Below, in pieces: positions 1 through 23,226 of a DNA stretch of 49,811 bases. Positions within the stretch are counted from its first letter, which is position 1. Each line of letters starts with the position of its first letter. The DNA comes from a virus. Below the pieces are notes generated by a model. That model searched no databases, was not told where the DNA came from, and worked only from the letters and a program-made list of their open reading frames with translations. The stretch lies in IMG/VR virus record IMGVR_UViG_3300005326_000015; one strand, given 5' to 3'. Position numbers and translations under genes: made by a program.

Positions 1-123
1 AAGATTGTCTTTGAACTGAAGTACTTTCCGGTGCAAGCCTTTATGGACCTGGTTGGAGATGACACTTCCTATGACCCATCAGCCTTGACATTATTGCAAA
101 ATTTATATTCTGCTTTGGCTATT
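1..123. repeat. Terminal direct repeat, copy 1 (identical to 49689..49811)
   Basis: The first 123 nt match the last 123 nt base for base. An ORF reads through the junction, so this fits the overlap of a circular or permuted assembly. Unit length is 49,688 bp. Confidence 0.9.
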
Positions 124-126
124 TGA
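1..126 (+). CDS. 3' end of the wrap-around tail-fibre anchor ORF (same gene as 49419..49811); stop TGA at 124..126
   Basis: The frame KIVFELKYFPVQAFMDLVGDDTSYDPSALTLLQNLYSALAI* continues the ORF that starts at 49419 once the 123-nt overlap is collapsed. Confidence 0.6.
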   Translation, partial: KIVFELKYFPVQAFMDLVGDDTSYDPSALTLLQNLYSALAI

Positions 127-177
127 TTAGATGAAGACGAGGCAGATATTGTTGATATACTTGCGGCCATTTCTGTT

Positions 178-960
178 TTGCAAGGGGTGGATTCTGACCT
201 TGAGGGAGATTTGTTTGCGCTCTCAAGTGAGTTAAACAATGTTCAAGGAGATTTGCAAGGTCAAATCACAGATAACCTACTGCGTTTAGAAACGGCAGAA
301 GATGATATTGACGCTTTGGAAGTCTTGGCAATTACATTGGAAGATGAAATTCCTTCTACCCCTTTACCAAGGGTAGCCGATTTGTTGGGTGCAACAAGCG
401 AGGCAGATATTCTTGGAGCCTTGGCAACGATTAACGCAACGCTTGAGGAAATATCTATTCCACGCTACGACGACATTGTGTTTGAGTTTACACCAACAAG
501 GGTCAACCCCACAACTAGCAAACCTGATTACGACGCAACCAATATTGGGTTACTCTTTCCAAGAAACGACACAAGCGAGGCGATATTCATCACAGTTCAG
601 ATGCCTCATAAATGGAAAGTGGGGTCAACGATTTATCCTCATGTCCATGTGGTTCAAGCATTGAATTTGCAGGCGACCTTCCGAATGGAATATAAGTGGT
701 ACAATATTGGAGACCAAATCCCTGTCTCATGGTCAACCTATGACATGCCGACCTATACCGTGCCTTATACAAGTGGTTCGATAAGTCAAATTATCAAAGG
801 TGATGGCATCAGTGGGGTTGGAAAAGATATTTCTTCTATATTAAAGATTAAGTTGTTTAGAACTGACAATGTGTACACAGGGGACATCCTTGCCGACCAA
901 TTCGATATTCATATCGAGGTTGACGGTTTTGGTTCTGAAACACAGTTCAGTAAAGAATAA
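178..960 (+). CDS. Tail-fibre shaft/tip-like structural protein; start unresolved (frame open from 127, TTG at 178 has no SD)
   Basis: 260-aa ORF with an acidic helical N-terminal region carrying repeated D-x-ADI-L-x-AL-A-x-I motifs, then a beta-rich C-terminal part. It lies in the tail-fibre cluster. No ATG/GTG with an RBS exists between 127 and 600. Confidence 0.6.
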   Translation: MQGVDSDLEGDLFALSSELNNVQGDLQGQITDNLLRLETAEDDIDALEVLAITLEDEIPSTPLPRVADLLGATSEADILGALATINATLEEISIPRYDDIVFEFTPTRVNPTTSKPDYDATNIGLLFPRNDTSEAIFITVQMPHKWKVGSTIYPHVHVVQALNLQATFRMEYKWYNIGDQIPVSWSTYDMPTYTVPYTSGSISQIIKGDGISGVGKDISSILKIKLFRTDNVYTGDILADQFDIHIEVDGFGSETQFSKE

Positions 961-976
961 GAAAGGGGGTTAGCAT

Positions 977-1387
977 ATGGCAACTCTTATAAAAACGATT
1001 AAAGATAGTCTTGGTAATCTTATCGTACCAAGAACAAGAGCCATTGCCGTGACATTGGAAGATAATGTGACGAATGTGGAGCAGGCATTGGCAGGAAAAG
1101 CACCTTTGGTTCACGCGCATGGCGATTTATATTACACAGAGACTGAGGCAAATGCTTTGTTGCTTAACAAAGTGGATAAAGTATCGGGCAAGGGTTTAAG
1201 CACAAACGACTACACAACTACGGAAAAGAACAAAGTAGCGAATGTTCCTGCCGATACAACTACGGCTCTTTCAGGTAAAGCACCTGTGGTTCATAACCAC
1301 GACGATTTATATTACACGGAAACAGAAATTGACACAATGATTGGTGATATTGAGGCAGTCCTCGACACCATTTTAGGAGGTGCTTAA
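977..1387 (+). CDS. Tail-fibre repeat protein
   Basis: RBS GGGGG upstream of ATG. Internal duplication GKAPLVHAHGDLYYTETE / GKAPVVHNHDDLYYTETE (HxH fibre-repeat type). GKGLSTNDYTTTEKNKV motif is typical of Gram-positive phage fibre proteins. Confidence 0.7.
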   Translation: MATLIKTIKDSLGNLIVPRTRAIAVTLEDNVTNVEQALAGKAPLVHAHGDLYYTETEANALLLNKVDKVSGKGLSTNDYTTTEKNKVANVPADTTTALSGKAPVVHNHDDLYYTETEIDTMIGDIEAVLDTILGGA

Positions 1388-1388
1388 T

Positions 1389-2825
1389 ATGTCAGTAGCA
1401 ACAAAATTACAAGCCGTTTATGACGCTATTTCATCCATGAAATCGGCTATCACAAGTAAAGGTCAAGTTCTTACCGATGTTCCCTTGTCAGGATGGGCGA
1501 GTAAAATCAATGCCATTGAGACAGGTGGCGGTATGGAAATAAACGGTCAAACCACAGTAAGTGGAGTAGCAGATGAGGATATTAGTGCGGGGGATGCAGT
1601 TGTAAGATTTGCAAGACCAAATTTTGTAGATAGTCCAAATGATTCTTTATTTTATAGAGGTGCTTATCAAAGATATTCTGCCTTGTCACCATCAGGTAAA
1701 TTTCTTGTAATAGGTGGTGCTCTTTCTACTTATGATACGGTTGTTTACAAAAGAAATTCCAATGAAGGGTTTGATTTCTTTTTCTCTTTTCCATCTACTG
1801 TCTCAGCACTATATTATTGTTTTCTTGATGACTATCGAATATTCGGTAATTTTGCAGGTGTTGGGGCGTCAGTTATGGTCTTTGATGACTCAGGACAGTT
1901 TGTTCATGAGTCACTCTCAACACATGGTATCCCTGAAATTCCTGTTGGTTCAGGTGCATTAAATAGTGTTTTCTCAGATGGCACTGGAAAATATATTCTT
2001 GTTTTTGTTCGTGTTAGTACTTCGACATATTTGAATGGTTTAATTCGTCAAGAAAATGGAAGTTATACACTTTGTCAAAGTACATTACTTTACACACTAT
2101 CTTGGACTTCTAGTACTTCTGCAAATCCTGTTGGTTCGCCTGGCTCTAATGTCTTTTATTGTGCCTGTTCATCAACATCTTTAACAACAACTGGGTATTT
2201 CGTTAGTTTATACGAGGGTTCATTAGAGCGCACGCAAGACTCTTCCGCTCATTCTGATGTAGGTGCCGCTCTTTTCGGTGTTTTCTCAAAAAATGGTCTT
2301 CGCTTTGCGGTTAAGAAGAGACTTATTTCTGACCCTGTTGTTGTTTTGACTAGAACGACTTTAGGGGTTTTACCCACTGTCAAAATCTTTAGTATGCCAT
2401 TGCCTGTGAGTGTCTTCTTTTTCTTGCCGAATGATGATTTAGTTATCTTCATTGAGAGTACTGTCACCGGAACATATCCTAATTTAATCCGTGTTTATAC
2501 TGTCGATGAATTAGGGAACTACGACTCAACAAGATGGTATGAACTTAATATCCCATCAATAAGCAGAACTTCAGCAGGTGCTAGACAGGCGACGATAACA
2601 AACTGTCTTAATTATCTATTTGTTCTGACAGGTACCACCTCCCCATTGGAGTGTTTTAATGTAAGGTTAAATTCTGAAGTGTACTCACTAAGTAAACAAA
2701 GTGGGGACTTGCGTTTTCCTTATAACTTAGCCGACATCGGCTACGCACCGCAAGCCATTGCAAAAGACGCAACAGGCGAGATGGTGTCCATCGCACGGAA
2801 TACGGCATTGTATCCAACAGAGTAG
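1389..2825 (+). CDS. Putative receptor-binding / distal tail protein
   Basis: ATG at 1389 is preceded by TAGGAGG (the ORF-track start at 1380 is a GTG inside the RBS spacer). The N-terminal KLQAVYDAISSMKSAITSKG motif is common in Firmicutes phage fibre-tip proteins. The rest is beta-rich. A terminator follows. Confidence 0.6.
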   Translation: MSVATKLQAVYDAISSMKSAITSKGQVLTDVPLSGWASKINAIETGGGMEINGQTTVSGVADEDISAGDAVVRFARPNFVDSPNDSLFYRGAYQRYSALSPSGKFLVIGGALSTYDTVVYKRNSNEGFDFFFSFPSTVSALYYCFLDDYRIFGNFAGVGASVMVFDDSGQFVHESLSTHGIPEIPVGSGALNSVFSDGTGKYILVFVRVSTSTYLNGLIRQENGSYTLCQSTLLYTLSWTSSTSANPVGSPGSNVFYCACSSTSLTTTGYFVSLYEGSLERTQDSSAHSDVGAALFGVFSKNGLRFAVKKRLISDPVVVLTRTTLGVLPTVKIFSMPLPVSVFFFLPNDDLVIFIESTVTGTYPNLIRVYTVDELGNYDSTRWYELNIPSISRTSAGARQATITNCLNYLFVLTGTTSPLECFNVRLNSEVYSLSKQSGDLRFPYNLADIGYAPQAIAKDATGEMVSIARNTALYPTE

Positions 2826-2846
2826 GGGAAACCCTACTTTTTTATT
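2822..2846 (+). terminator. Rho-independent terminator
   Basis: GTAGGG-gaaa-CCCTAC hairpin followed by TTTTTTATTT; it overlaps the stop codon of the 1389..2825 gene. Confidence 0.7.
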
Positions 2847-3041
2847 TCCTCCAGTTAAAACACAATGAATGAGTTATACGGAGAAAATATGAAAACACTT
2901 AACAAATTGACCTCACTTTTGCGTTGTTGCAGAAATTGATTGATTTTCTTTAGATTTAAGTAAAATATCGCCAAAAGTAAAATGTTGCAGTGTTTCGGAT
3001 AAAATCGAAATTCATCCGTTTTTGGGTAACATTAAAGGTTA

Positions 3042-3070
3042 TTTACTTTGAATAGGCACTATGATATAAT
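3042..3070 (+). promoter_or_regulatory. SigA-type promoter (lysis cassette)
   Basis: TTTACT-N17-TATAAT with a TGa extended -10 (TGATATAAT), about 25 nt upstream of the 3094 gene. Confidence 0.6.
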
Positions 3071-3093
3071 TATACCCGAAAGGGGTGTGACTC

Positions 3094-3336
3094 ATGCCTA
3101 AACAAAAACGAAGCATACCAAAAAATCAAGATGTGACTATGGATGTAAATGACATTGTGCGTCAACTAAGCGCACAATTCTCTGACCAAATTGCTGCTTT
3201 GAACCAGCAGTTGGCAGCCGCGCGCACAGAGGCCAATGTATGGCGAAATCAAGCCGCGCAGTTGGAAGGGATTTTAAGTGTTGTATTGGATGAAATTGAC
3301 GGAAAAGCCGAAGCGGCTGAGGAGGATGTCGAATGA
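3094..3336 (+). CDS. Hypothetical coiled-coil protein (first gene of lysis cassette)
   Basis: 80-aa ORF with RBS GAAAGGGG. Ala/Gln-rich helical sequence. Stop overlaps the next start (ATGA). Confidence 0.55.
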   Translation: MPKQKRSIPKNQDVTMDVNDIVRQLSAQFSDQIAALNQQLAAARTEANVWRNQAAQLEGILSVVLDEIDGKAEAAEEDVE

Positions 3337-3740
3337 ATGAATTTATTGTAAACCTACAAGAGCAACTATTAGGATTGACCCTGATAATGTGTGCTGCCTT
3401 ATTCTTCCAAATTGGCAACATGTTTGCCGGAGCCTATGTAAACAAGGAAGCCTTTGACATTAAAAAGTTCTTTGCTGGATTCAAAGGGGTCGCCATCCTA
3501 TACATCCTGTTTGTATGGCTGACTACCGGAATCACCGCGTTGCCTTATTTACTTGAAATGACCGGATTGATGACGCTTTCTACTGAAATTACAGGAATTA
3601 TTACTTATGCTGCCATTATATTCTACTGGGGCAAATACACGATTGACAGAGCCAAAGACATGGCGGATAAACTACTATTTATTAAAGACTTTCGCAAACC
3701 TGAACTGACTGAAGAACAAAAAGTTGAAGGTATAGGATAA
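3333..3740 (+). CDS. Holin-like membrane protein
   Basis: 135 aa with three hydrophobic segments (LTLIMCAALFFQIGNMFAGAYV, VAILYILFVWLTTGITALPYLL, ITGIITYAAIIFYWG) and a charged C-terminus. It lies immediately upstream of the peptidase gene. Confidence 0.6.
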   Translation: MNEFIVNLQEQLLGLTLIMCAALFFQIGNMFAGAYVNKEAFDIKKFFAGFKGVAILYILFVWLTTGITALPYLLEMTGLMTLSTEITGIITYAAIIFYWGKYTIDRAKDMADKLLFIKDFRKPELTEEQKVEGIG

Positions 3741-4525
3741 TGAATGTCTTCGCCCTTTGGGAAGCCTACTTGACTCAGGGATTCAAAAGCACACATATGG
3801 CCAATGACTACGGATGGATTCGCTTAAATTTAAGTAAACCTCCGGTGTATAGTGTCATGAAAGGTGTGGTCATTGCATCCTATTACAGTTCAGGCGGTGG
3901 AAACATTGTGGCCATTCTTGATGATTCAGGGGACTTCCACTGGTATCAATGGCGCTATGTCCACTTAGATGTTAGGTATGTAAAAATAGGAGACAGAGTG
4001 GATGTCGGACAAGTGATAGGGCTTGGAGGAAACACAGGCACAAACAGTACTGGACCTCACCTTCACATTGAATGTCTGATTGTCCCGAAAGGATACCGTG
4101 CCTTCATTTACGCAGACCGATTGAAGTATGCTGTTGACCCACGCTTCATCATGAGCACGATTCCTGGTCAACCACTGAGAGGAGAACTAATTCAAATGAG
4201 CGTCGTAGATACAAGTCTTTTACCAAAAGCCTTCCCGACCATCACGAACTTGCTACTTCGTAGTTCAACAAGTACAGCCACTTCCTTGAATAAAGTTGGT
4301 GTTTATGTACCAGCATCAGGATTGCCGTTAGCAGGAATTATTGATGTCGCAGGGTTCAAATGGTGTGCCTTGTGGTATAACAATAAAATTGTTTATGCCG
4401 CATTGAAGTACCTGAGAATCGAACCGAATGTCAAAGAAGTCGAAAAAATAGTGGAAGTTGAAAAACCGTTTGGTCCGGTAACGCTTACACAAGGTGATGT
4501 TTCAATCACGATAAAGAAGGGGTAA
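3740..4525 (+). CDS. Peptidase M23-family endolysin with C-terminal (wall-binding?) domain
   Basis: HxxxD (HMANDYG) and GNTGTNSTGPHLHIE motifs are characteristic of M23/LytM peptidases. TAATG overlap with the holin gene. Confidence 0.8.
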   Translation: MNVFALWEAYLTQGFKSTHMANDYGWIRLNLSKPPVYSVMKGVVIASYYSSGGGNIVAILDDSGDFHWYQWRYVHLDVRYVKIGDRVDVGQVIGLGGNTGTNSTGPHLHIECLIVPKGYRAFIYADRLKYAVDPRFIMSTIPGQPLRGELIQMSVVDTSLLPKAFPTITNLLLRSSTSTATSLNKVGVYVPASGLPLAGIIDVAGFKWCALWYNNKIVYAALKYLRIEPNVKEVEKIVEVEKPFGPVTLTQGDVSITIKKG

Positions 4526-4540
4526 TACCCCTTTTCTTTT
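4519..4540 (+). terminator. Rho-independent terminator
   Basis: GGGGT-aat-ACCCC hairpin containing the stop codon, followed by TTTTCTTTT. Confidence 0.65.
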
Positions 4541-4560
4541 GTGCCATAATAGTGTATAAT
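4532..4560 (+). promoter_or_regulatory. Possible promoter for 4600 gene
   Basis: TATAAT at 4555..4560 (also TGcCATAAT at 4542..4550). The -35 is weak (TTTTCT). Confidence 0.4.
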
Positions 4561-4599
4561 ATCCGCAGGGGTACAATGTAACAAGAGGAGCGTGATTCG

Positions 4600-4866
4600 A
4601 TGGACCAAGCAACATATGTAGGCATGTTTATATTCACTGTGGTAACACTTTCAGGGCTATTGGCGGTGTTTGCCAAAATCGTCACAGCGTTTGCAAATGC
4701 CGTGGCAAAATTAGATAATCTTATTCAAAAGTTTGAACTCTCAGATGCAACCAACCGGAGAGAGCACGAAGAATTATTTACGCAACTGGATGCACACAAT
4801 GAGATGATAAAAGAAGCCCAATGGTTTTGTAAATTCCAACATCCTGACCAGCCCCGAAGAATATAG
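4600..4866 (+). CDS. Small N-terminally anchored membrane protein (BhlA/UviB-like holin-type, tentative)
   Basis: 88 aa with RBS GAGGAG. One N-terminal TM segment (VGMFIFTVVTLSGLLAVFAKIV) followed by a charged helical tail. Confidence 0.55.
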   Translation: MDQATYVGMFIFTVVTLSGLLAVFAKIVTAFANAVAKLDNLIQKFELSDATNRREHEELFTQLDAHNEMIKEAQWFCKFQHPDQPRRI

Positions 4867-4877
4867 GGGCTTTTATT
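4850..4877 (+). terminator. Rho-independent terminator
   Basis: AGCCCC-N10-GGGGCT hairpin spanning the stop codon, followed by TTTTATT. Confidence 0.6.
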
Positions 4878-4899
4878 ATGGATTTATATATGATATAAT
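4871..4899 (+). promoter_or_regulatory. Promoter of the Gln-rich protein / giant ORF unit
   Basis: TGATATAAT extended -10 at 4891..4899 (the same 9-mer as at 3062..3070). The -35 is weak. Confidence 0.5.
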
Positions 4900-4927
4900 T
4901 GAACCGTAATCAAAGGAGAGTGATATT

Positions 4928-6064
4928 ATGAGTTATAACTATGGACCTACTATGCTCGCCGACAGTGGCGGATACAGTAATACAACCACGCAAGACCCTA
5001 TGAAAAACTGGTTGCAAGAGCAAATCGACCTACTCATGAGAGGCGGCGGTGGAGGAGGCTCTGCATCGAACTATATGACGAAAGCCCAAGGAATGTTAGG
5101 TCCCTTGGATTTAAGTTCGTTTGAAGAACTTCGCGGTGTCATGAATGACCAGTACAACACCAGCAGCAATTCCTTGCAAAATCAGTACAACACCATGCTT
5201 CAGCAATTAGAAAAAGCAGGCACTCAAAATAAGCAGGCTTTCGGTAAAGGCAGAGCATCCATTATGGAAAACTCATTTGAGCGTGGCCGTGATGCGTTAA
5301 GAGCCTTGTCCTCAAGAGGTATGGCTGCATCCGGACTTCAGCAATTAGGTGATGTTCAGCAACGGATGGAAACAGGCCGTCAGACTTCCGGTTTGGCTGG
5401 TCAATTCTATGATGTTCAGGATAAACTGGCAGACAGCCAGGTCCAGGGTCAACAAAACTATGAGACCCAAAAACAGACCCTTGAGAATTCATTGAATCAG
5501 CAAATGGCTCAATTAAGTGCTCAGGAACTTCAATTCAAAAATTCTTACCAGCAGCAAGTGGCTTCCCTGGCAATGCAGATGCAACAACAGGCAGCGCAGG
5601 CTTCTGCTGCGAAATTAAACAGGGACCTGCAATTATTATCATTAAGACAGCAAATGGAACAAACTGGAGGAGACCCATTGACTGCTCCGGCAAATCAAGG
5701 GGGCATGATGGCTATTGCGATGGAACCTGGAGCAAATGACCTTGTTAAAATTGCTCAATTACAATCACAATTCAACTTGACACCTGAACAGGCAAAGTCC
5801 TACTTAGGTAAAGTTGAGGGACAATTACAACAACAAGTGTACCAGCAGGAATATAGCACCTTAATGAGTGCCGCACGGTCAGGCAAATACACACCATCCC
5901 AAATGAAGGAAATGATAAAAACCCTGAAGGACAGCGGTATTACCTTGAAACCTTCAGATGAATCCATCTTAATATCTATGGTCACTCCGGCAAGTAAAAA
6001 CACAATCGGCGGTGTGACGGACGCTTACGGTTACAGAGAATTGCTGGGGGACCAGTGGAAGTAG
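4928..6064 (+). CDS. Gln-rich coiled-coil protein (putative internal virion / ejection protein)
   Basis: 378 aa with RBS AAAGGAGAG. Contains a GGGGGG tract and long Q/N-rich heptad-like regions. Co-transcribed with the giant ORF. The functional call rests on position and composition only. Confidence 0.55.
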   Translation: MSYNYGPTMLADSGGYSNTTTQDPMKNWLQEQIDLLMRGGGGGGSASNYMTKAQGMLGPLDLSSFEELRGVMNDQYNTSSNSLQNQYNTMLQQLEKAGTQNKQAFGKGRASIMENSFERGRDALRALSSRGMAASGLQQLGDVQQRMETGRQTSGLAGQFYDVQDKLADSQVQGQQNYETQKQTLENSLNQQMAQLSAQELQFKNSYQQQVASLAMQMQQQAAQASAAKLNRDLQLLSLRQQMEQTGGDPLTAPANQGGMMAIAMEPGANDLVKIAQLQSQFNLTPEQAKSYLGKVEGQLQQQVYQQEYSTLMSAARSGKYTPSQMKEMIKTLKDSGITLKPSDESILISMVTPASKNTIGGVTDAYGYRELLGDQWK

Positions 6065-6075
6065 GAGGACATAAC

Positions 6076-9000
6076 ATGTCAAAAATTGATGAACTATTGA
6101 ATCGTTTAGGCCAATCAGCAGCCAAGGGTACGATTGATGCCATCGGACAAACACAGGGGGCGGCTAATAAGTCGCCTCTTTTGGAAGTTCAAAATCAAGT
6201 AGATAACTTAGCAGCGCGTATGCAGGGTTCGGGCATAGACCCGACTCAATTCACAGATACCCGAAACCCTTTAGAAAAGATGTTGAATCTTCGTCCTGAC
6301 CAAAATCTTTTGTTTGACATCTTTGAAGTCATTAACCGTCCTCAGCAAGCCTTGTTTGGAGGAATCCAGCATTTGCAAGAAGGCGGAGATTTTCTAAAAG
6401 GCATGGAACAAGGACTTACAAGGACAGGGGCTGAAGAATTCTCCGGCGGTCAAATCCTCCGTAATATGTTTTCAGGAGGCAAGCGCGAAGATGGCACGAT
6501 GGACTGGACAGACTGGGTTGGTTTTGGGTTGGATGTATTTGCTGACCCTGCTGACCTTGCTTTTCTACCTGTAAGTGCAGTAGCCAATGTCGGACAAGCA
6601 GCAACGAAATTGACAGGTAAAGCATCCACGAAGATGGACAACCTGATTAAAGGTGGCATGGCTGCCTTAGGAAAAACAGATGTAAATACCGTGGCTAAAG
6701 TAGCCAATGTGGCTGATGATGTCATGGATGTCGGAGAAAAGACCATGGCTTCCATGGCTAAAGATTCTTATAAACTAATTCGCGAAGGAGAGAAATTTGT
6801 ATCTCCTACGGATTTAACTATGCGTGCTTTATTTGGCACCGTGTCCTTTGGATTAAAAGGAGCGGACGCTAAGTTGGCTGAACCTTTAATGACGGTTCTT
6901 GGGAAAGCAGAAGACTATGGCAACTTCAAGAAAGTTGTATCTAACTTCTTCAATCAAACGAAAGCCTTCTCAAAGGAAGCCGTGGCTAACATTCGCTTGG
7001 CTTTTGGTGAAGAAGCCTTTGCTAAGAAATACATGTATGAGGCTTTGAAAGCCACCGATGAATTGTTAGAATCCTGGGCCGGACAATTAGGAGTTACACC
7101 ACAGCGCTTGTCAGAAATGATGGGCGAATACTGGTCGGTCACTTCTCCGGAGCAAATGATGAGAGCCTCCGATATTCTGTTAAAACAACGCGGAGCACAG
7201 TTGATTCCTTATTCGGATGAAATGTATGAGAGTTTGAGCAAAATGGTCAACTCAGAGCAAGCCATTGGTGATTTGATGCCTGTCATCGAATTTGAAGGTT
7301 TGTCGTATATTGACCTTCGTAAAATAACCAGGGAAATGGTTGACCAAAGTGCAAAAGAAACTTCGTTGGCTATCCCTAAAATGATTAAACATTTGGATGT
7401 AGATAACATCTCAAAGTATGCAGATATGCCTTTATTTGAGCAAGCATACACGGACTGGTATGTTCAATACCAACGCATGAGAAAAGGTTTATGGTCCATT
7501 CAAGGCTCTGAATTCGGTATGGGTACAGAGTACTTGAGAAATGTGCTAACGGAAGATGCAAGACATGCACTGGCTGAAGTGGATGCGTTGAACCATGTCT
7601 TTGATTTAGGCGGACAGACCACCAACAAGACTATGGGAGACCCGACGCTGTTTGCTGGCCGTAAGTATGGGGCTGACCCGATTACCGCAAGTAACTGGAT
7701 TAAGGCTGAGCGTACTTTAGATACCATGGAGCGTATGGAAAAGGTGTTAGGAGCACGCGCTAAAGTAAGCAATGCTACCGCAGACGCTATTCAAGCGGCT
7801 AAACTTGTTGAAGCCCAAGCCCTTGAAGCAGGAAGTAAGATTAAAATTGACCGTCGTGTCCGTGACCTGTTAGATGAGTTTATGGAAGAAACAGGTGTCA
7901 CCCAAGACATGCTGGATATTTATACCGTTATGATGGAAAACAAACTGGCTAAAACTGAAGTGGGCCGTGACTTGATTCGTCAAGCCAAAGCCGTCGGTTT
8001 AGTTGGAGAAGATGAGAAAATCTTAGATGTGTCTTCTCATCGCTTTACTGTGGGAGAAAAGAGTGGCTCTACCTTAATTGAGACTCTTGACCCTGAAGAC
8101 TATAACCGTTTGGTGTCATTAAAAGCATCAGACCCTAATTTCCAAAGTAAAGTATCGAAAGAAGTTTATAATGCCATCGGCTCTCAACCGATTCCTATGA
8201 AGTTCAAAGATGGTACGGCTTTAACGAAGCAACAGGCCAAAGGTTACAATAAATTGACCACTTGGGTTCAAAGACTAAAAGAACTTCGTGCTCCGACATT
8301 GACAGGGATGAAGTCTGAAGGTATCATGCAGATTGTTGATGACACAGTATGGTCCAAAATTGATGATGAATCCTTGAAGGGTATTGCATACAGAAGCAAA
8401 GTCATTGAAGCCACGGACGATATTGCAGAAGGTTTGACCAGTGTGCCTTTGAAACATGTGGATTTGGAAGAAGCCGCACAAGGCTTGGCCAAAGAACCTG
8501 ACTTCTTAAAGAAAGTTGTTGACAACTTAAACAAGGCCACAAACAACGCATCGTCTGAAGTTGCTTTGGGTGATTTGATTAGCAGACCTGAATCTATTAT
8601 TGACTACGCGCGCCGTGAAGTTTTAAGACAAGCACGCGAACAGTACACATATAGGCAAATGAAGACAGGCATCCAGGAATTACTTGGACGCGCTGCAACG
8701 GATGAAGATATGGCAAGAGCCGTCGCTTTGGCTGAAGCAGGAAAACCTTTGCACCCACGCTTATTTGACCCGAACTTTAACATTTGGCAGCGTACCATCG
8801 ACAATTTGGACGGTGACTTCGCTAAGGCCAAAGAGTTAGGTAAAGGTTTGAAGGATGGCACTTATGACCTCAAGACAGGTAAGAAACTTGACCTTGAAGG
8901 TGATGACAGTTACATGGTGTCCTTTGAGCAATCTTCGGACGCTTACACACCGGAAGAATACAATAAAATTATCAAAGAACTCATGGACGAAACTGGCAGC

Positions 9001-12000
9001 GAAGCCTATTTAGGTGTTTACGGTCAGCCTGAAATCAGTTTTAAGGTGGCTACGGAAGAAGAGGCCATGGCCTTAGCCAAGCGCTTTAATCAAGAATCCA
9101 TTTACTTTAACGGTAGAGTATTAGAGGATGGTACAAAAGTCCCTGCTGACTTGATTATGAATCCGGACTACAATCCTGCAACGAATCAAATTATTCGTGA
9201 TGTTGTGGAAGAAGTCCCTGTAACCAAAGCGCCGGAGCCTATTATCACTCCTGAAGACATTAAAGCACCGGAACCTGTCAAGGCTCCTGAGCCTGCTGCT
9301 CCTGCTGAGAAAACATATCTTGATAAGAAAATTGAACTTGATGAATTTGAGACAAAAGAATTGTCTTCGATAATGAATATCAATAAGCGGGGGACTTCTG
9401 TAAAACCTTTCAGAAAGAAAGTCTTGTCGAAAGACCTTGATGATTATATTGCTAAAGGATTAAGTGATGATGTTGGCGAAGATTCGTTCTTCAGAGCCTT
9501 CAATATTACAGACCATAAAGGGGCAAAAGGACGCTTAGAAGGAAGAGATTATGAACCTTTGACAAAAGCGCAATATGCAGACCGTGGGCTTGAAAAGTAC
9601 ACTCCTTTGAACAGTAACGCCCCAAAACTCAGAGTTGTGGACAGAGAACTGGCACAAAACCATCATGAAATCAAACGCGTACGAAGAGCCATGGAAAAAC
9701 TTGACGCGCAGATGGGTACAAATTATGCCAACACTGGCTTGCTGGGTGAGATTTACAAAGAAGTAGATGAAACAGCCGATGCGTTGGCAAAGATGAAACC
9801 TGAGGGGCATCAGATTTATAAGACAGCCGCAGACAGCAGAGACAAATTAGTTGGTAAACTTCAAAAAGACTTGAAACTTCCTTCTAAAAAATCCGTTGAT
9901 GCGTTGGCAAATGAAACATTAGTTGATAATGCTTTCTCAAACAGCCGTGTAGCCAGTGAGTTGCGACTAAGGGCAGCAGATTATCCTGTTGTTGACTCTT
10001 TCACGATGCGAAGTGAAGTTATGGAAGTGTTGTCTGAAGATGCTTATGCAATGATGACAGGCAACATTTTAAGTAAAGAATTTAATGACCGTTTTGGAAC
10101 CATTGCTGGAAGAACAAACCTAAATACACCTTTCTCAGAAGAAACTCAGACTTACCTTCAAAGATTGTACGATGAGGTTCAAAAAGTTAGACAGGGTTCC
10201 TTCCCTTATGCAAAGTTTATGCAAGATGGTGTACTTGATGAAGAGAGAGCCTTTGAGGCTTTAAATGATTACATGAAGTCTGTCAACGGAATGTCAGTGC
10301 CTGAATTGCAAGAAGAGATGAGAAGGGCTTATAACGCTATTGACGAGATTAAAAGGACAAAATATGACTTGAGACAGGTGCTTGAATCAGAAGAAGCATT
10401 ACAAAATCTTCAAAACACCTATCAAAAAACAAACAACAAGGCCTATCACTATGGTGACTTAGGTATAGGCAGAGATACGACTTTCAAAAATATGGGTAGT
10501 AGCAGAGGCACAGGGCACTTTGGTACAGGCACTTACTTCTTGGGAGAAGAGGCAGCAGAAAGTACAGGCAAAATATCGTCTTATGCAGGCCGCCCTTTGA
10601 ATGAAGTAAACTTTGATGACTATGCTACATTTAAGCCAGCAACAGAAGAAGCAGGATTTGCTTTACATGATGGATTAAAAGAAATCAACGCTGTCAGTGA
10701 CAATGTGCAAAGCATGTGGACTGGCCGACCTTACACCGATGCTGAAGGATGGACCCACTATCCTGAGACGATGCAAATGACAGACCGTGAAATGGCTAAA
10801 ATCGTTAGAGAAGCCATGACCAACGGTAAGTTGAGCACAGACTTGAGTAAAGTTATGGATGATGCCTTAGATTACAACCAACGAGCCATTTCCGCTGGTA
10901 AAATTGATTTATATTATGCTAACTTATTTGATTCATTTGTAGAAGAATTTTCAGAAAAGGGAGCAGACACCTTGAACAGATATTCTGCCTTGCTACCTGC
11001 TAATTTGAAAACTGTGTTCGATGATTTGATTGCAAAGACAAAGGATGGTGTGGCTGAAGTTTCCGACTTTACAGGAAGAGAAGTTGGTGACATCGTAAAT
11101 ATCTTTGAAGGCATGTCGAACATTCATAAAGCCTCCAACAAAGCCTTGAAGAAGTTTGAGAAGGCAGGCTTGCCAAGGATGAACAAGAGCGTTGAAGAAT
11201 TTGTGACTTCCTTGATAGAGACAGTTAAAAAAGGTATGTCAGGCGATGACATGGCTCCGACGGCTTCAACCAATTTCATGAAAATGATTGGCTATGAAGG
11301 TATAGATGTCCGTGGATTGAAAGCATTAGACAACACTACCTACGGCAGCGTTATATACGATGTCAAAAAGGCTGCACAGGAAGCACCGGAAGCGGCTGCT
11401 GTTAAGGTAACACCGGATGACTTCGCTGCTAAAGCACCTGAAAAGGTAACGGAGACTCTGCCGTTTGACTACAACACCAATGACTACAAAGGGACTGTAC
11501 CTGCACGCACCTTAAATGCTCAAAGCAAAAAAGTCACGCTGGCTACTCCTGAAGAGTTTAATGTCATGGAATCCTTGTATAAAAGGTCAGGACGAAGGGC
11601 TTTTGCAGATGACCCTTATGTCTTTGAAAGATTAGTTGCAGGGAAACCTGGCATGAAAATGAAGACTATATTTGAGATTGAGGACACATTAAACAATATA
11701 AATCAAAAAATCAATGAAGGTACGATGAGCCTTACAGAAAAAGAACTGGATGACTTGTACACCTTGATGCAAAAGATTGATGCTGAATTCGGAACGGATT
11801 TGTCCAAACATTCAATACTTTCCAAAAAGAAATTTGATACTTATAACAAACGACTCAGTGACTACAACGCGCAAAAGTTGGCTTCGACACCTAAAGTGGA
11901 CGATTCTGTGGACATCCTGGATGAAGTCACCGGAAAAGCGCCGGAGCCTGAGTTGGATATTAACGCGATGTTCAAAGAGGCTGAGCCTCCAGTTCAAACA

Positions 12001-14139
12001 GCGAAGGCCGTTAACCCTGAATTTGAATATGAAGCATTGAACGACGCAGACTTTGTAACAGACTTGAACGCTAAAGTTCAAATAAATCCATTCGTTGAGA
12101 AGGTTTCCGTGAACCAGGCCACCTTATTCCAGTTCGATGACAAGACAATTCAGAAGTTAGCCGAGCGGATGAGAGCCAAAGGGATATTCACGGAGCAGCA
12201 AATTGCTGATATTACATCTCCGTTGGGTCAGAAGTGGTTAAACAAGTACATTGATGAGCACCACAAAACCGTGTTCCAAGGTACGGAAGCATATATTGAC
12301 AAGACTTTGAAGTGGTTGGATGACACTCAGGCTCAAAAGGTCTTCGAGACATCCGTCACAGCCTCTATGGCCGATTTGATTGAAACCTTGCCAAGAACAG
12401 TACGCTCAGCCAAAGTGTTTGATGCAATACTGTCTCCGTCGGTGGCTGAAATGGGAAGCCCGAACTCACCATTCCAATGGATTGAATTCGAGGATGAACT
12501 GGTCAGCGCTGTTAAAAACGAACAGGGTGAAGTCATTAAAACCATTACCAAAAAGAAGATGCCAAAAGCACCGTTGGGCTTCAAACGGATGTCCAATTCC
12601 CAGGTGCAGGAGTTTATTACAAAGATTGAGCGCTTAAACAATTTCATTCAAAGTGATGAGTTGCTGAGCGTGGCTGACTGGATGAAGAGTCAACTTGCGA
12701 AGAACGCAAAGAACCCAACAGGCCAGTTAGTGATTGAGGCCAATGTGGCGCGGGTGCTTGAGTTGGATTACAACAAAGTATCCGGAGCGTTGCTGAAATT
12801 CGTTGACTTCTCAAACAACTTATTCAAACGAAACAAACTGTTATCCCTTGCCTTCAACATCCGCAACAGCATCGGTATTACGACGAACATGTTCTTGTCG
12901 GGTATGGAGTTTACAGACATTGCGCGCAGTTTTGCAAGGGCAGACAACATCTTCAAACAAGGACCTGAATTGCTGGCCAGGGCTGCAAGAGCCGACATAA
13001 ACACGCTGAGCAAGATATTCAGTCCGGAAGAGATGAAGATATACCAGGCCTATGAAATGTTCATTAAAGGACAGTTCACGCTGCCAAGAACCATAAAGCA
13101 AGCGATTGCGGAAGGTCTCTCCGGCTCAGGGTCTGAGTTGATGGATTTGGATGGAATTAAAAAGGACATCACGAAAAATGCTAAGATGCCTGAATGGCTC
13201 CAAAAGAGCAAGGATGCCCTGGATACTGTGTCGATTGTCAATGGATGGGGAAATGAAACTGTGGATGCTTATGGTCGTATGGCTGTAATGGTGCATGCCA
13301 TGGAAAATCCTGAGTACCTGCAAAAGTTGATGGTCCAGGACCCGATTGCCGCCGTTCGCTTAGCCATGTTTGACCCAAAGAACCTGTCCTCTTATGAGAC
13401 AGAGATTGCCAAGCGGGTCATCCCATTCTATTCATTTACGAAGCAGAACTTAGTCTATCATATGCAAAACCTGCCAAACAATGCGGTCCGCTACAACAGA
13501 ATCCAAAAAGGATTGCGCAGCGCATGGAATGGTATGGGATTAAAACAAGAAGATTTGGAAGCCTACAAACTGGAGCAAATGTATATCCCGATTCCAGGGA
13601 TGTCAGCGGATGGCAAGTACTTCGCCATTAAAGCGAACCTACCACAATCCGACTTCGGCGAATTCTTAGGTAATCCAATTCAACGAGTGCTTGCATCCAC
13701 TTCCCCGCTCATTCGGGCCGGATTTGAAGTGGCAACCAACAAGCAAATATTCACCGGACAGGAAATATCCGAATTCCCTGGTCAGCGCAGCAGCACGATG
13801 CCATTCCTTGATAGGAATACAGAGTACTGGCTGAGCCAAGCAGGGTTGGATGTTCCAATGAAAGGTCTTACCGGATTATACAACGCAGCAACAGGGCAAG
13901 ATGTCCAAGGAGGTCTCATGCAAGCGTCAAACATTATCTCTCAAGGGTCCAAAGAGCAAGGTCAACTAAACCGCGCCTACCAAACTTTAGAGAGATTGCA
14001 ACAAGGTGTCCGCTACCTTAAACAAGAGGAAAAGGACTTACTCAAACTGGCTGAAATAAACAGTCCGACCCCAGCACTGGATGCAGCCCAAAACAAAATG
14101 GATGCACTTATGGCTAAACTAAAAAAAGGCCCCCGATAA
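6076..14139 (+). CDS. Giant multidomain (polyvalent-type) protein, 2,687 aa, with putative ADP-ribosyltransferase-like segment
   Basis: Uninterrupted 8.06-kb ORF. ATG at 6076 lies 6 nt after AGGAGGA (the track start 6055 is a GTG inside the previous gene). Pro-rich KAPEP linkers at 9226..9309, ~11430 and ~11935 suggest domain boundaries. The motif YHYGD..(N22)..GHFGTGTYFLGEE..(N19)..LNEVNF lies at 10444..10614. A bidirectional terminator follows. Confidence 0.9.
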   Translation: MSKIDELLNRLGQSAAKGTIDAIGQTQGAANKSPLLEVQNQVDNLAARMQGSGIDPTQFTDTRNPLEKMLNLRPDQNLLFDIFEVINRPQQALFGGIQHLQEGGDFLKGMEQGLTRTGAEEFSGGQILRNMFSGGKREDGTMDWTDWVGFGLDVFADPADLAFLPVSAVANVGQAATKLTGKASTKMDNLIKGGMAALGKTDVNTVAKVANVADDVMDVGEKTMASMAKDSYKLIREGEKFVSPTDLTMRALFGTVSFGLKGADAKLAEPLMTVLGKAEDYGNFKKVVSNFFNQTKAFSKEAVANIRLAFGEEAFAKKYMYEALKATDELLESWAGQLGVTPQRLSEMMGEYWSVTSPEQMMRASDILLKQRGAQLIPYSDEMYESLSKMVNSEQAIGDLMPVIEFEGLSYIDLRKITREMVDQSAKETSLAIPKMIKHLDVDNISKYADMPLFEQAYTDWYVQYQRMRKGLWSIQGSEFGMGTEYLRNVLTEDARHALAEVDALNHVFDLGGQTTNKTMGDPTLFAGRKYGADPITASNWIKAERTLDTMERMEKVLGARAKVSNATADAIQAAKLVEAQALEAGSKIKIDRRVRDLLDEFMEETGVTQDMLDIYTVMMENKLAKTEVGRDLIRQAKAVGLVGEDEKILDVSSHRFTVGEKSGSTLIETLDPEDYNRLVSLKASDPNFQSKVSKEVYNAIGSQPIPMKFKDGTALTKQQAKGYNKLTTWVQRLKELRAPTLTGMKSEGIMQIVDDTVWSKIDDESLKGIAYRSKVIEATDDIAEGLTSVPLKHVDLEEAAQGLAKEPDFLKKVVDNLNKATNNASSEVALGDLISRPESIIDYARREVLRQAREQYTYRQMKTGIQELLGRAATDEDMARAVALAEAGKPLHPRLFDPNFNIWQRTIDNLDGDFAKAKELGKGLKDGTYDLKTGKKLDLEGDDSYMVSFEQSSDAYTPEEYNKIIKELMDETGSEAYLGVYGQPEISFKVATEEEAMALAKRFNQESIYFNGRVLEDGTKVPADLIMNPDYNPATNQIIRDVVEEVPVTKAPEPIITPEDIKAPEPVKAPEPAAPAEKTYLDKKIELDEFETKELSSIMNINKRGTSVKPFRKKVLSKDLDDYIAKGLSDDVGEDSFFRAFNITDHKGAKGRLEGRDYEPLTKAQYADRGLEKYTPLNSNAPKLRVVDRELAQNHHEIKRVRRAMEKLDAQMGTNYANTGLLGEIYKEVDETADALAKMKPEGHQIYKTAADSRDKLVGKLQKDLKLPSKKSVDALANETLVDNAFSNSRVASELRLRAADYPVVDSFTMRSEVMEVLSEDAYAMMTGNILSKEFNDRFGTIAGRTNLNTPFSEETQTYLQRLYDEVQKVRQGSFPYAKFMQDGVLDEERAFEALNDYMKSVNGMSVPELQEEMRRAYNAIDEIKRTKYDLRQVLESEEALQNLQNTYQKTNNKAYHYGDLGIGRDTTFKNMGSSRGTGHFGTGTYFLGEEAAESTGKISSYAGRPLNEVNFDDYATFKPATEEAGFALHDGLKEINAVSDNVQSMWTGRPYTDAEGWTHYPETMQMTDREMAKIVREAMTNGKLSTDLSKVMDDALDYNQRAISAGKIDLYYANLFDSFVEEFSEKGADTLNRYSALLPANLKTVFDDLIAKTKDGVAEVSDFTGREVGDIVNIFEGMSNIHKASNKALKKFEKAGLPRMNKSVEEFVTSLIETVKKGMSGDDMAPTASTNFMKMIGYEGIDVRGLKALDNTTYGSVIYDVKKAAQEAPEAAAVKVTPDDFAAKAPEKVTETLPFDYNTNDYKGTVPARTLNAQSKKVTLATPEEFNVMESLYKRSGRRAFADDPYVFERLVAGKPGMKMKTIFEIEDTLNNINQKINEGTMSLTEKELDDLYTLMQKIDAEFGTDLSKHSILSKKKFDTYNKRLSDYNAQKLASTPKVDDSVDILDEVTGKAPEPELDINAMFKEAEPPVQTAKAVNPEFEYEALNDADFVTDLNAKVQINPFVEKVSVNQATLFQFDDKTIQKLAERMRAKGIFTEQQIADITSPLGQKWLNKYIDEHHKTVFQGTEAYIDKTLKWLDDTQAQKVFETSVTASMADLIETLPRTVRSAKVFDAILSPSVAEMGSPNSPFQWIEFEDELVSAVKNEQGEVIKTITKKKMPKAPLGFKRMSNSQVQEFITKIERLNNFIQSDELLSVADWMKSQLAKNAKNPTGQLVIEANVARVLELDYNKVSGALLKFVDFSNNLFKRNKLLSLAFNIRNSIGITTNMFLSGMEFTDIARSFARADNIFKQGPELLARAARADINTLSKIFSPEEMKIYQAYEMFIKGQFTLPRTIKQAIAEGLSGSGSELMDLDGIKKDITKNAKMPEWLQKSKDALDTVSIVNGWGNETVDAYGRMAVMVHAMENPEYLQKLMVQDPIAAVRLAMFDPKNLSSYETEIAKRVIPFYSFTKQNLVYHMQNLPNNAVRYNRIQKGLRSAWNGMGLKQEDLEAYKLEQMYIPIPGMSADGKYFAIKANLPQSDFGEFLGNPIQRVLASTSPLIRAGFEVATNKQIFTGQEISEFPGQRSSTMPFLDRNTEYWLSQAGLDVPMKGLTGLYNAATGQDVQGGLMQASNIISQGSKEQGQLNRAYQTLERLQQGVRYLKQEEKDLLKLAEINSPTPALDAAQNKMDALMAKLKKGPR
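12064..12081. repeat. TTGAAC-N6-GTTCAA palindrome (copy in giant ORF, in-frame LNAKVQ)
   Basis: ttgaacgctaaagttcaa; TTG is a codon in the ORF frame. Confidence 0.9.
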
Positions 14140-14150
14140 GGGAGCCTTTT
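14128..14150. terminator. Bidirectional terminator between convergent blocks
   Basis: GGCCCCC-gataa-GGGAGCC hairpin (one mismatch), flanked by an A8 run upstream and TTTT downstream. It sits between the stops of the 6076..14139 (+) and 14153..15043 (-) genes. Confidence 0.6.
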
Positions 14151-14152
14151 CT

Positions 14153-15043
14153 TTATGCCTTCGTTTTACGGAAGGTAGCATTGACATAAGTGGTGCCAGG
14201 TTTGCGGTACATATCCAAGTTCAAGTCAGGATTGTCTAAGGTCAACAAGGCTTCATCCAAGCCTCCTTTACGGAAGACTTCACTGATGGACATGCTGAAT
14301 CCGATGCCACTAAACTTCACATTCTCATAGCGTTCTTTGAACCATTCACTCAAGTCTTTTTCCCTGGCTTCAAGTTCCTTGATTTCCTGCTTCAGTTCAA
14401 ACAGTTCATAGGCTTTTTCTTCAGCCTCTGTGCTGAATTCGGCTTCTTTGATGACAACCCCTTGAGCGTTGTATTTTGAATTGTAAAGTTCAATAAGGTC
14501 ATAAGGGAAGTTTTTATAATCTTCAATACCATTGAGGCAAGCGAACACAAAGTCCACCATTTGCTCCATAAGCCCGATAAGTTCATCGTCGCGGCGAATT
14601 GTCGTGTAGATAGGCTTTCCCTTCCACATCCCGCAAAGCAGCGCCTGAGTGGCCCCTGTGGCCTGCATATAGGCTTGTACTTGAATCGCATAGCCTTTAC
14701 TCTGTGTGAATGGCTCTTGAGCGTTGGAGATTTTACATTCAACGACGGTCATTTCACCGTCGATAATGGCCATACCGTCGGTTTTACAGCGGATGCGTTC
14801 ATCGAAGGCATAGCGCACTTTTTCGTTGCGCTCTCCGATGCTAATTTGAAGTTTGTTCTCAAAGTAGTTGAGAGCACCTTCTTCAAGGAATGTTCCCCAG
14901 TCCATGCGGTCTTGCGCATCCTCTGTGAATTCCTGTTCGTCAATACCTAAATCGAAACGGATTTGTTCGGTTGGTGAATTGAATCCTACACCGAAGTAGG
15001 ACCCCAAACTGGATGCTGTTAGAGTGAATCTTTCTTGTTTCAT
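14153..15043 (-). CDS. YqaJ/lambda-Exo-like PD-(D/E)XK recombination exonuclease
   Basis: 296 aa. The D...ECK signature (KTDGMAIIDGEMTVVECK) and overall layout are typical of YqaJ-type viral exonucleases. An annealase gene is present elsewhere in the same block. Confidence 0.7.
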   Translation of the reverse strand: MKQERFTLTASSLGSYFGVGFNSPTEQIRFDLGIDEQEFTEDAQDRMDWGTFLEEGALNYFENKLQISIGERNEKVRYAFDERIRCKTDGMAIIDGEMTVVECKISNAQEPFTQSKGYAIQVQAYMQATGATQALLCGMWKGKPIYTTIRRDDELIGLMEQMVDFVFACLNGIEDYKNFPYDLIELYNSKYNAQGVVIKEAEFSTEAEEKAYELFELKQEIKELEAREKDLSEWFKERYENVKFSGIGFSMSISEVFRKGGLDEALLTLDNPDLNLDMYRKPGTTYVNATFRKTKA

Positions 15044-15046
15044 GGG

Positions 15047-15301
15047 TTAACCCTCCATTTTCGTTATTTCATAATCAAAGAATAAACGGATGCTCTTCTT
15101 ATTCTTCCCCATCCCGCCATTATGGCCGTGAGGTACTGGCTCTCCAAAATCGACATAATACATATCCATTTCCTTGTAGGCCTCGTATCGGTCTATTTTG
15201 GCAACGGTACCTACCATGTCCTGGTAGATTTCGGAATTAGGTATTGTGAGGTCAGGAGAGGTCACTTTGACTCTATCTCCTACTTTGATGATTGCTGGCA
15301 T
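15047..15301 (-). CDS. Hypothetical small protein (SH3/KOW-like N-terminus?)
   Basis: The start at 15301 (MPAIIKVGDRVKV) follows GGAGGG and overlaps the upstream stop (TAATG). The longer track ORF has no RBS. Confidence 0.55.
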   Translation of the reverse strand: MPAIIKVGDRVKVTSPDLTIPNSEIYQDMVGTVAKIDRYEAYKEMDMYYVDFGEPVPHGHNGGMGKNKKSIRLFFDYEITKMEG

Positions 15302-16290
15302 TATTGCCCTCCTTTCAAGATGGCGGACCATCGTTTGACAATATAGTCATTTTGCGGCTCATACAATGGCAGCCGCTCAGGTGATGTTGGAAAATCTTTC
15401 CAGTCATAATTTCCATGAGGCACTGTTGGGTCATCCGTGAATGGATACCATACCACAGGTGTGCCTAAGGCTTGCGCTTCCAATGTGACCATCCCGAAGG
15501 TCTCAAAGTCACTGAGCATAAACAGGAAGTCTGCATTTCGCATATACGGATAAGGGTTTGCGCGTGGTCCTATAAACAAGGAGCGCTCATGGTTAAGCAA
15601 CTCATCAGGGACATATTGCCACGCGGCTTCGACATGAGGCTCTCCGACAATGACCAGGAATAGGTCTTCTCTTTCATTCAGGATTTCCAAGGCGCGCACC
15701 CATCCTTTTTCCGGAGAGATGCGACATACCATTAGGCCTCTCAAATACCCATCAGGCCACAGGGTCTGTAAACCTTTCATGAGGTCAGGCATGATTTTGC
15801 TTGATTTTCTCATGATGTTATTTACATCTAATATGTTTGGGATGACATGATATTCTGAGCGTGGCACTTCCAAACTGAAGGTCTCATATTGCCATTGACT
15901 GACAAACACTTTAGGCATGTCTTCAAATCCCAACGGTCCTTTTAGAAGACTCCGCGGGCAATGCAGCCAAGCCACTTTTCGGGAGGATGTCACAAACTCA
16001 GAGATGTCTTTCTTGCAGAAGGGTGAGCAGTAAACCAACACATCCACATGCTGCGGCTTCTTGCTGCGCTCTACACGCGTCACTCCTCCCACTCTTCCAA
16101 CTCTATCATGACATAAGCGCTTTGTAAACATAATTTCGTCAAAAACCTTAATCATTTTGTCGTCACCATCCTCATAACAGAGGCTGACATCGAACTCCAT
16201 GGTGTGTAATAGCATCCGTGCCAAATTGTACACCGCCATCTCAACTCCTCCTAAGACTGGCTTAGGTATATAAAACATTATTTTTTCCAT
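15301..16290 (-). CDS. GT-B fold glycosyltransferase (GT1/GT4-like)
   Basis: 329 aa. C-terminal ...FMLSDFETFGMVTLEAQALGTPVV... matches the E-x-FG-x4-EA-x2-G-x-PV signature of family 4/1 glycosyltransferases. Confidence 0.75.
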   Translation of the reverse strand: MEKIMFYIPKPVLGGVEMAVYNLARMLLHTMEFDVSLCYEDGDDKMIKVFDEIMFTKRLCHDRVGRVGGVTRVERSKKPQHVDVLVYCSPFCKKDISEFVTSSRKVAWLHCPRSLLKGPLGFEDMPKVFVSQWQYETFSLEVPRSEYHVIPNILDVNNIMRKSSKIMPDLMKGLQTLWPDGYLRGLMVCRISPEKGWVRALEILNEREDLFLVIVGEPHVEAAWQYVPDELLNHERSLFIGPRANPYPYMRNADFLFMLSDFETFGMVTLEAQALGTPVVWYPFTDDPTVPHGNYDWKDFPTSPERLPLYEPQNDYIVKRWSAILKGGQ

Positions 16291-16620
16291 TTACGCAGCC
16301 TCCTTTGGCTTGAAACATACCATAAATTGTTCATCGGGTTGCTCATCCTGTATGTTTTTATATTTTATATCCGAAAAAGAAACCAAATCGTCATCTGCTA
16401 ATTCAGTTATAACAACATCTGTTCCCTTTCGCCAACACCAATCTTCACCATAATTTGTAGCAACACACTCCCACACACTACCTACTATCAGTTTATCTTT
16501 GCGTGATTCAAATTCAACACGCTCATCTATCCACTTCTTGATAAGATTTTCCTCTTCTTCATTCAAATCAGCAAGGCTCATATAACTTAGAGCCATCTGA
16601 ATCTTTTGATATTCATTCAT
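16291..16620 (-). CDS. Hypothetical protein, paralog of 16613..16996
   Basis: The start at 16620 (MNEYQKIQ) follows GGAGGAG. Shares ESRKDKL(I/V)VGS-W-C-A...F(M/L)(V/L)CF(K/M)PKE with the upstream gene. Confidence 0.6.
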   Translation of the reverse strand: MNEYQKIQMALSYMSLADLNEEEENLIKKWIDERVEFESRKDKLIVGSVWECVATNYGEDWCWRKGTDVVITELADDDLVSFSDIKYKNIQDEQPDEQFMVCFKPKEAA

Positions 16621-16996
16621 CCTTAATCTCCTCCTTCGACTTGAAACGGAGTGGGAAGTGCTCTTTTGGCATAAAGCAGAGCAGGAATTGCTCTTTCTTA
16701 ATGCTTTCATCACTGCTTAAATTAACCCATTGGTCATTCTCTATGTTGGCTATCTTGACAACAGTGCCTTTAATGATAGGAAACCAATCTCCCCAAAACA
16801 CACCTGTGCACTCTGCAATACACACCCATTCGCTACCCACAACCAACTTATCTTTGCGTGATTCAAGTTCGGTTTCTTTGTCAATTAGTTCTTGTAATTC
16901 CATAATTTCTTCTTCATTGTCATTAAATTCCATATCGCCTAAAACTTTATTTGAATCATGTTTCCATTGATTCAATGCCTTTTGATATTTACTCAT
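16613..16996 (-). CDS. Hypothetical protein, paralog of 16291..16620
   Basis: 127 aa. Tandem duplicate (see the paralog). The start is embedded in the GGAGAGTAAAGATGA junction. Confidence 0.6.
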   Translation of the reverse strand: MSKYQKALNQWKHDSNKVLGDMEFNDNEEEIMELQELIDKETELESRKDKLVVGSEWVCIAECTGVFWGDWFPIIKGTVVKIANIENDQWVNLSSDESIKKEQFLLCFMPKEHFPLRFKSKEEIKDE

Positions 16997-17150
16997 CTTT
17001 ACTCTCCTTTTCTTTTACCCAATGCAACTTTTTACCACAATTTGAACAATAATTAGGTTTTGTGGTATCTGTTTCCCATTCGCCTAAATAAACAATTTCA
17101 TCACAATTATTACAATGCCAATCACCACAATTTAAATATGGTTTATTCAT
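16989..17150 (-). CDS. Small zinc-ribbon protein (53 aa; not in ORF track)
   Basis: MNKPYLNCGDWHCNNCDEIVYLGEWETDTTKPNYCSNCGKKLHWVKEKESKDE. It has C-x5-C-x2-C ... C-x2-C, its start lies in a GGAGAGTAAAGATGA junction, and it fills an otherwise empty 150-nt gap. Confidence 0.55.
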   Translation of the reverse strand: MNKPYLNCGDWHCNNCDEIVYLGEWETDTTKPNYCSNCGKKLHWVKEKESKDE

Positions 17151-17935: not shown

Positions 17936-18153
17936 TTTCGTTCCTCCTTCGCTGCTCTGTGGGTAACAGTGATGCGATAATCTACCACACCCCACTCAAC
18001 TTGTGAAGTATGAACGACTTGAATCGTCCTCATGATGTCTTCCACATATGTCTGCATGTCTGCTTTTAATCTCTTCTCAAACAAAGACACAGCCTTGTCA
18101 ATTTCATCTTCCAAAGTAGCAACAATAGTCGCTCTGATGTATTTTTCAATCAT
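17932..18153 (-). CDS. Hypothetical protein
   Basis: 73 aa with RBS GGAGGAG; tightly packed between neighbouring genes. Confidence 0.55.
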   Translation of the reverse strand: MIEKYIRATIVATLEDEIDKAVSLFEKRLKADMQTYVEDIMRTIQVVHTSQVEWGVVDYRITVTHRAAKEERK

Positions 18154-22690: not shown

Positions 22691-22691
22691 A

Positions 22692-23216: not shown

Positions 23217-23226
23217 ATTGTCCTCC

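Follow-up and report, generated by a model that had tools for sequence, protein, structure and literature searches.

An in-frame TGA in a predicted tail-fibre gene of a podovirus-like metagenomic phage is probably an ordinary nonsense variant and not programmed readthrough

In phage Q-beta, the UGA that stands before the A1 extension is a fixed and essential feature of the genome. In lambda, the side fibres are lost from the laboratory strain through a frameshift in stf and are retained in Ur-lambda (PMC12617516, citing Hendrix and Duda 1992). In phages with reassigned stop codons, where TGA or TAG is read as sense, many in-frame stops are found across the late genes, often together with suppressor tRNAs (PMC9523058). 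Here we describe an in-frame TGA within a fibre-like gene of a metagenomic phage, carried on a stretch of 49,811 nucleotides (IMG/VR record IMGVR_UViG_3300005326_000015), the whole of which is referred to as the window. An earlier reading of this DNA, made from the letters alone (the sequence-only reading), had offered two explanations for the TGA, programmed readthrough or a recent nonsense mutation. We consider it likely that 49419 through the circular closure to 960 is one gene, that in this podovirus-like phage it encodes a 409-residue protein of tail-fibre or receptor-binding type, and that a C-to-T change (CGA, Arg132, to TGA) is an ordinary nonsense variant in it, not programmed readthrough. 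The features of the locus are as follows.

49419..49811, plus strand: codons 1-131 of the fibre-like gene, in which the predicted beta-sandwich anchor (residues 1-105) is followed by the beginning of the helical shaft; its last 123 bases are repeated at 1..123
1..123, no strand: terminal overlap, a copy of 49689..49811, read as a k-mer overlap of the assembly
124..126, plus strand: TGA stop, codon 132 of the joined gene, with the variant base 124 (from the assembly comparison)
127..456, plus strand: predicted helical shaft, codons 133-242, with repeated (E/D)ADI..L.A motifs (from sequence, alignment and model)
148..189, plus strand: ATT 148, TTG 178 and GTG 187, the only candidates for a restart close to the stop, none of them canonical with a well-spaced Shine-Dalgarno (SD) sequence
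463..960, plus strand: predicted jelly-roll or beta-sandwich tip, codons 245-409, with TAA at 958-960 (from homologues and a model with pLDDT >90)

The two ends of the window overlap exactly over 123 bases (1..123 = 49689..49811), and the window therefore closes to a circle of 49,688 bases. This circle was assembled with overlaps of 123 bases in the window, 141 bases in the k141 contig and 30 bases in the Logan contig, and the break points differ between the assemblies. We read the terminal repeat as a k-mer overlap left by the assembler, a sign that the contig is circular, and not as evidence of a physical direct terminal repeat. Across the closure, the ORF proposed in the sequence-only reading was confirmed: it starts at ATG 49419, downstream of the strong SD sequence AAGGAGG, and runs to the TGA at 124-126 (131 codons). 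The frame then stays open, again as proposed, from 127 to the TAA at 958-960 (277 codons). Only the size of the fusion had to be corrected, the joined product being counted as 409 aa (131+1+277) and not 410 aa. With a stop-trinucleotide frequency of 0.048 in the window, the chance of an open run of 277 codons is about 1e-6, and homology identifies this run as coding. As a control, we inspected the 45 other gene ends in the window; at least 100 open same-frame codons follow 5 of them, and in every one of these 5 cases the ATG of the next gene lies 0-3 codons past the stop. A shared frame after the stop is in itself not unusual, and the oddity at TGA 124-126 consists in the missing start and in the fused homologues.

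Searching the protein collection with the joined sequence returned 48 proteins. All 13 of the aligned homologues that bear the N-domain (alignment A1) are uninterrupted single polypeptides, with 43-52% identity and a common layout of N-domain, variable-length linker and highly conserved C-terminal domain. Moreover, the ORF is intact and has an ordinary start in the IMG/VR loci L005 and L006. The comparison of this codon among relatives, which had been recommended earlier, thus gave a sense codon in the 13 homologues, in L005 and in L006, and a stop in no relative. In the closest N-domain homologue (P0052), LYASLEARVTAAESDI is aligned with LYSALAI*LDEDEADI of the window, which places Arg opposite the stop; the longer alignment reads …LLQNLYASLEARVTAAESDI… against …LLQNLYSALAI*LDEDEADI…. 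The residue aligned with the stop varies among homologues (H, K, S, D), and for this reason a readthrough product would probably fold.

The 131-residue N-domain was also searched against 1.8 billion representative proteins and gave 36 matches, in 26 of which it forms the N-terminal module of proteins of 215-927 aa. Short matches of 105-178 aa exist as well, for which a fragment and a complete gene are indistinguishable without context. The C-terminal tip domain is common to 47 database proteins whose N-termini are varied. A separate arrangement is seen in P0002, where the anchor is joined directly to the tip and there is no shaft. Profile searches of Pfam, PHROGs and PDB gave no sequence-level family match for either half of the gene, and tblastn against 50,697 phage records gave no match for either half.

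The joined protein was modelled with AlphaFold2 from a 48-sequence alignment (mean pLDDT 82). The model contains a beta-sandwich at 1-105, helices at 116-242 and a beta-sandwich or jelly roll at 245-400 (pLDDT >90), which bears out the architecture of anchor, helical shaft and beta-rich tip suggested in the sequence-only reading, and residue 132 falls at the start of the helical shaft. The fused homologues and this model of the joined protein together support the view that a single tail-fibre gene is split by the stop. The shaft is probably a trimeric coiled coil, with low model confidence as a monomer. Relative to most homologues, the shaft of about 110 residues (127-456) is an insertion, and by comparison with the shorter homologues it is lineage-specific. 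The helical repeat motif peptides reported on both sides of the stop were all found, and one of the motifs is also a DNA repeat, with 138-154 and 399-415 being 94% identical. Further internal repeats, spaced by 42 bases, are present in the shaft DNA at 200/242 and 298/340.

Foldseek searches of BFVD with the model matched phage neck-passage proteins (including a Lactococcus phage neck passage structure protein), BppU-domain proteins and tail-fibre proteins, and those of PDB matched jelly rolls of the CBM, TNF and capsid types. Since there is no sequence match in Pfam, PHROG or PDB, the label of fibre or receptor-binding protein is drawn from fold and gene neighbourhood, and on these grounds the gene product is predicted to be a protein of tail-fibre or receptor-binding type. 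The jelly-roll tip (463-957) had its best matches in the viral library among 'collagen triple helix repeat' proteins of Klosneuvirus and Catovirus, both giant viruses, and there in the C-terminal domains (24-25% identity, Foldseek E about 5e-11). Judging from the predicted fold, the tip module seems to be shared by phage fibres and giant-virus fibrils.

The gene is located in a tail-fibre cluster. Upstream is a fibre of 721 residues that bears a chaperone domain, Peptidase_S74, and downstream is a 136-aa protein (977-1387, plus strand) with weak matches to tail-fibre PHROGs. This 136-aa protein contains two copies of a GKAPxVHxHxDLYYTETE motif, and the 481-aa ORF that comes after it (1380-2825) has no family match. 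Between the two fibre genes lies an ORF of 93 aa (49141-49422, plus strand), which overlaps both at its ends. It carries an HExxH motif (HEMVH), matches PHROG 15610 'protease' (E 1e-11) and shows a weak eCIS_core match below the Pfam cut-off; from these features it may be a small zincin-like protein of the tail module. A giant ORF of 2,694 codons (6055-14139, plus strand), for which public gene calls begin about 21 bases later (~6076), has no Pfam match and could serve the podovirus as an internal virion protein or an ejection protein. The genome also encodes a portal, a major head protein and a terminase. Judged by its large terminase (38316-39938, plus strand), the phage has its nearest cultured relative in the Paenibacillus larvae podophage API480 (and phage SV21), with only about 38.5% aa identity. 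The sequences indicate a podovirus-like phage of a distant uncultured lineage, and a Firmicutes-type host fits in view of the strong SD sequences.

We further compared base 124 across assemblies of the same phage, and it is T in the window, C in Logan SRR5248219 and N in JGI 3300002171. In the Logan contig (L002; 49,718 = 49,688 + 30 bases) the codon is CGA (Arg132) and the 409-codon gene is intact. Both contigs were reached via the neighbouring 136-aa gene, and over 8,411 bases each of them differs from the window at base 124 alone. Over 13,706 bases the JGI contig matches the window at every position but base 124, where it has the sole N in 13.7 kb. Over 20,403 bases the ENA contig k141_832061 (49,829 = 49,688 + 141 bases) shows no difference from the window, and one entry of the protein collection (P0001), recorded on a 49,829-base contig, has 409 aa and R132. 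In all, about 30 kb (28316..49688 and 1..8633) were compared with three other assemblies, a comparison that leaves out 8634..28315 or about 40% of the circle, and base 124 is the only difference. Since the Logan contig has C, P0001 has Arg and no other differences were found, the TGA is a CGA-to-TGA transition away from the sequence of the other assemblies. The second of the two earlier explanations, a recent nonsense mutation, is accordingly supported both by the CGA (Arg) at this codon in otherwise identical assemblies and by the homologues being single polypeptides.

Exact DNA patterns spanning the junction or lying shortly past it had zero matches in the viral and JGI metagenome collections, and the products expected from the T allele were not found in the 15-billion-protein collection. 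The searchable literature contains no mention of SRR5248219, 3300002171 or ERZ27247099. Exact-product look-ups also returned nothing for the genes at 8.6-28.3 kb and for every minus-strand gene tried (14153-36345); nonetheless, the 265-aa minus-strand gene at 30650-31447 is called in L004 at the same coordinates, and the failed minus-strand look-ups look like an index gap, not sequence divergence.

Under the preferred reading, a single C-to-T transition has turned codon 132 from CGA (Arg) into TGA in the allele that this assembly captured. The T allele would then yield a 131-residue N-terminal anchor fragment with essentially no shaft or tip, and a T-allele particle would be without the distal receptor-binding part of this fibre. 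Such an allele would presumably be a loss- or reduced-function allele of an accessory fibre. It may be tolerated, and maybe favoured in some conditions, because the phage encodes other fibre proteins. We read the nonsense allele as recent and possibly as a minority one.

The position of the variant bears on whether the T allele is real. Base 124 is the first base after the 123-base overlap (overlap+1), and the chance that a sole variant would be placed there is about 1 in 49,688. In de Bruijn graph assembly, an SNP turns the preceding k-mer into a branching node, and it is at a branching node that a circular contig tends to begin once the bubble has been removed and the contig re-joined. The T allele was seen in the window only. 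Taken together, the N and the overlap+1 placement point indirectly to a site that is polymorphic (C/T) among the sequenced phages, and we infer from them that both alleles may coexist in one sample. A pure sequencing or assembly error, with CGA throughout and no phage genome carrying T at base 124, would also account for a T that is confined to the window assembly where two other assemblies have C or Arg, for a protein collection without T-allele products and for a base that adjoins the contig end and the overlap. We regard such an error as unlikely, given that the independent JGI assembly has its sole N in 13.7 kb at this very base, which points to mixed reads, that the contig break lies right at the variant, as would be expected from a real graph bubble, and that the k141 contig equals the window at its own overlap+1 and so shows no sign of a systematic end artefact.

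Programmed readthrough of the Q-beta A1 type, the other explanation offered earlier, is not supported, for even assemblies of this one phage do not all have the stop, and the relatives have sense codons. Nor is there support for a leaky UGA here: the codon stands between AUU and UUA, which puts U at +4, and TGA is a normal terminator that ends 11 of the 46 genes in the window. ARAGORN found no tRNA gene in the whole window, hence no suppressor tRNA (anticodon UCA). The work of Poole, Brown and Tate from 1995 on bacterial termination signals is said to have described UGA-U as a tight context. In a mammalian study, UGA_U was a stronger terminator than UGA_C (PMC9841425). A stimulatory RNA structure was sought by folding 100-240 (141 nt), and none was evident (z = -1.41, with 20 of 200 shuffles folding at least as well). 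Background readthrough that is not programmed may occur and give a low level of functional full-length protein, and ATT 148, TTG 178 or GTG 187 may allow weak reinitiation.

A more elaborate proposal is that a leaky stop is maintained in the GCTATTTGATTAGAT context, where readthrough or reinitiation at the same three codons (ATT 148, TTG 178, GTG 187) sets a useful ratio of truncated to full-length protein, as a dosage or host-range switch like that of Q-beta A1, at the level of the population or of the particle. The site is apparently polymorphic in more than one assembly, the aligned residue is non-conserved and any inserted amino acid would be tolerated, GAGG lies 5 nt ahead of ATT 148, and a sole difference in about 30 kb hints at selection over drift. 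We nevertheless find this proposal improbable, as the TGA is absent from the sibling assemblies and from all homologues, the UGA-U context is reportedly tight (with PMC9841425 for the mammalian case), and neither an evident stimulatory RNA structure (z = -1.41) nor an encoded suppressor tRNA accompanies it. Moreover, a trimeric fibre would need three full-length chains, and readthrough of a few percent would leave very few complete fibres. We give a similarly low chance to a maintained C/T polymorphism, in which an opal, fibre-truncating allele persists beside the intact allele across samples, maybe as the sole variable site in the genome, and switches host range or adsorption at the level of the population, a few full-length fibres being supplied in the T-allele phage by rare UGA readthrough or reinitiation.

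The start codons downstream of the stop were also considered. The program-made ORF list begins the downstream ORF at TTG 178, which has no well-spaced SD, and GAGG at 139-142 is 5 nt upstream of ATT 148; both observations of the sequence-only reading hold. Its claim that there is no early start holds for ATG, the first in-frame one being at about codon 159 of the open frame, but not for GTG, as an in-frame GTG is present at 187. The AAGGGG that precedes GTG 187 abuts it directly, with zero spacer. Products starting from TTG 178, GTG 187 or TTG 211 were not found in the 15-billion-protein collection. Two genes, with an anchor of 131 aa and a shaft-and-tip protein of about 257-271 aa that has a start of its own, both made and assembling non-covalently, are highly improbable, since TTG 178 and GTG 187, though available in frame, are without a well-spaced SD where the neighbouring genes have clear ones, the first helical repeat would be lost with a start at 178 or 187, and all close homologues as well as the other assemblies of the same phage have a single polypeptide, the few database proteins (124-178 aa) with the N-domain and a short helix alone being possibly fragments. 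Genome-wide recoding of TGA was ruled out by the long uninterrupted frames that code 11 gives, one of which has 2,694 aa, by the use of TGA as a terminator and by the lack of tRNAs.

Returning to the nonsense variant, we suggest annotating the locus as a single fibre gene of 409 codons that carries a nonsense variant. It also gives a caution for metagenomic phage contigs, where an in-frame stop may mimic recoding and may really be the allele that the assembler chose at a polymorphic site.

The locus can be compared with four known systems. First, the phages with stop-codon reassignment (code 4, code 15; PMC9523058) likewise have an in-frame stop inside a structural gene, but the present genome has it at a single codon, uses TGA as the terminator of 11 of 46 genes and encodes no tRNA in the window. 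Second, as in Q-beta A1, a UGA stands between a short product, the major one in that case, and an in-frame extension; the locus differs in that a sense codon is found in other assemblies of the same phage and a stop in none of the relatives, and in that its context is not a leaky one. Third, modular receptor-binding proteins of the BppU and neck-passage types consist of an N-terminal anchor, a coiled coil and a C-terminal lectin-like jelly roll. The same three-part architecture appears in the model, and the Foldseek matches and the siting among fibre genes agree likewise; the difference is that no Pfam, PHROG or PDB sequence match is found here, and membership is by fold and neighbourhood only.

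Fourth, the lambda stf gene (PaPa versus Ur-lambda; PMC12617516) resembles the locus in that a single-nucleotide lesion splits the ORF of an accessory fibre into two apparent ORFs. Intact and broken alleles occur among near-identical genomes in both cases, and lambda is viable via its remaining adsorption proteins. The lambda lesion is a frameshift fixed in a laboratory lineage, whereas here a CGA-to-TGA nonsense change is seen in a metagenomic population. The sole difference in about 30 kb truncates a predicted receptor-binding protein, which fits selection on adsorption organs, as with lambda stf.
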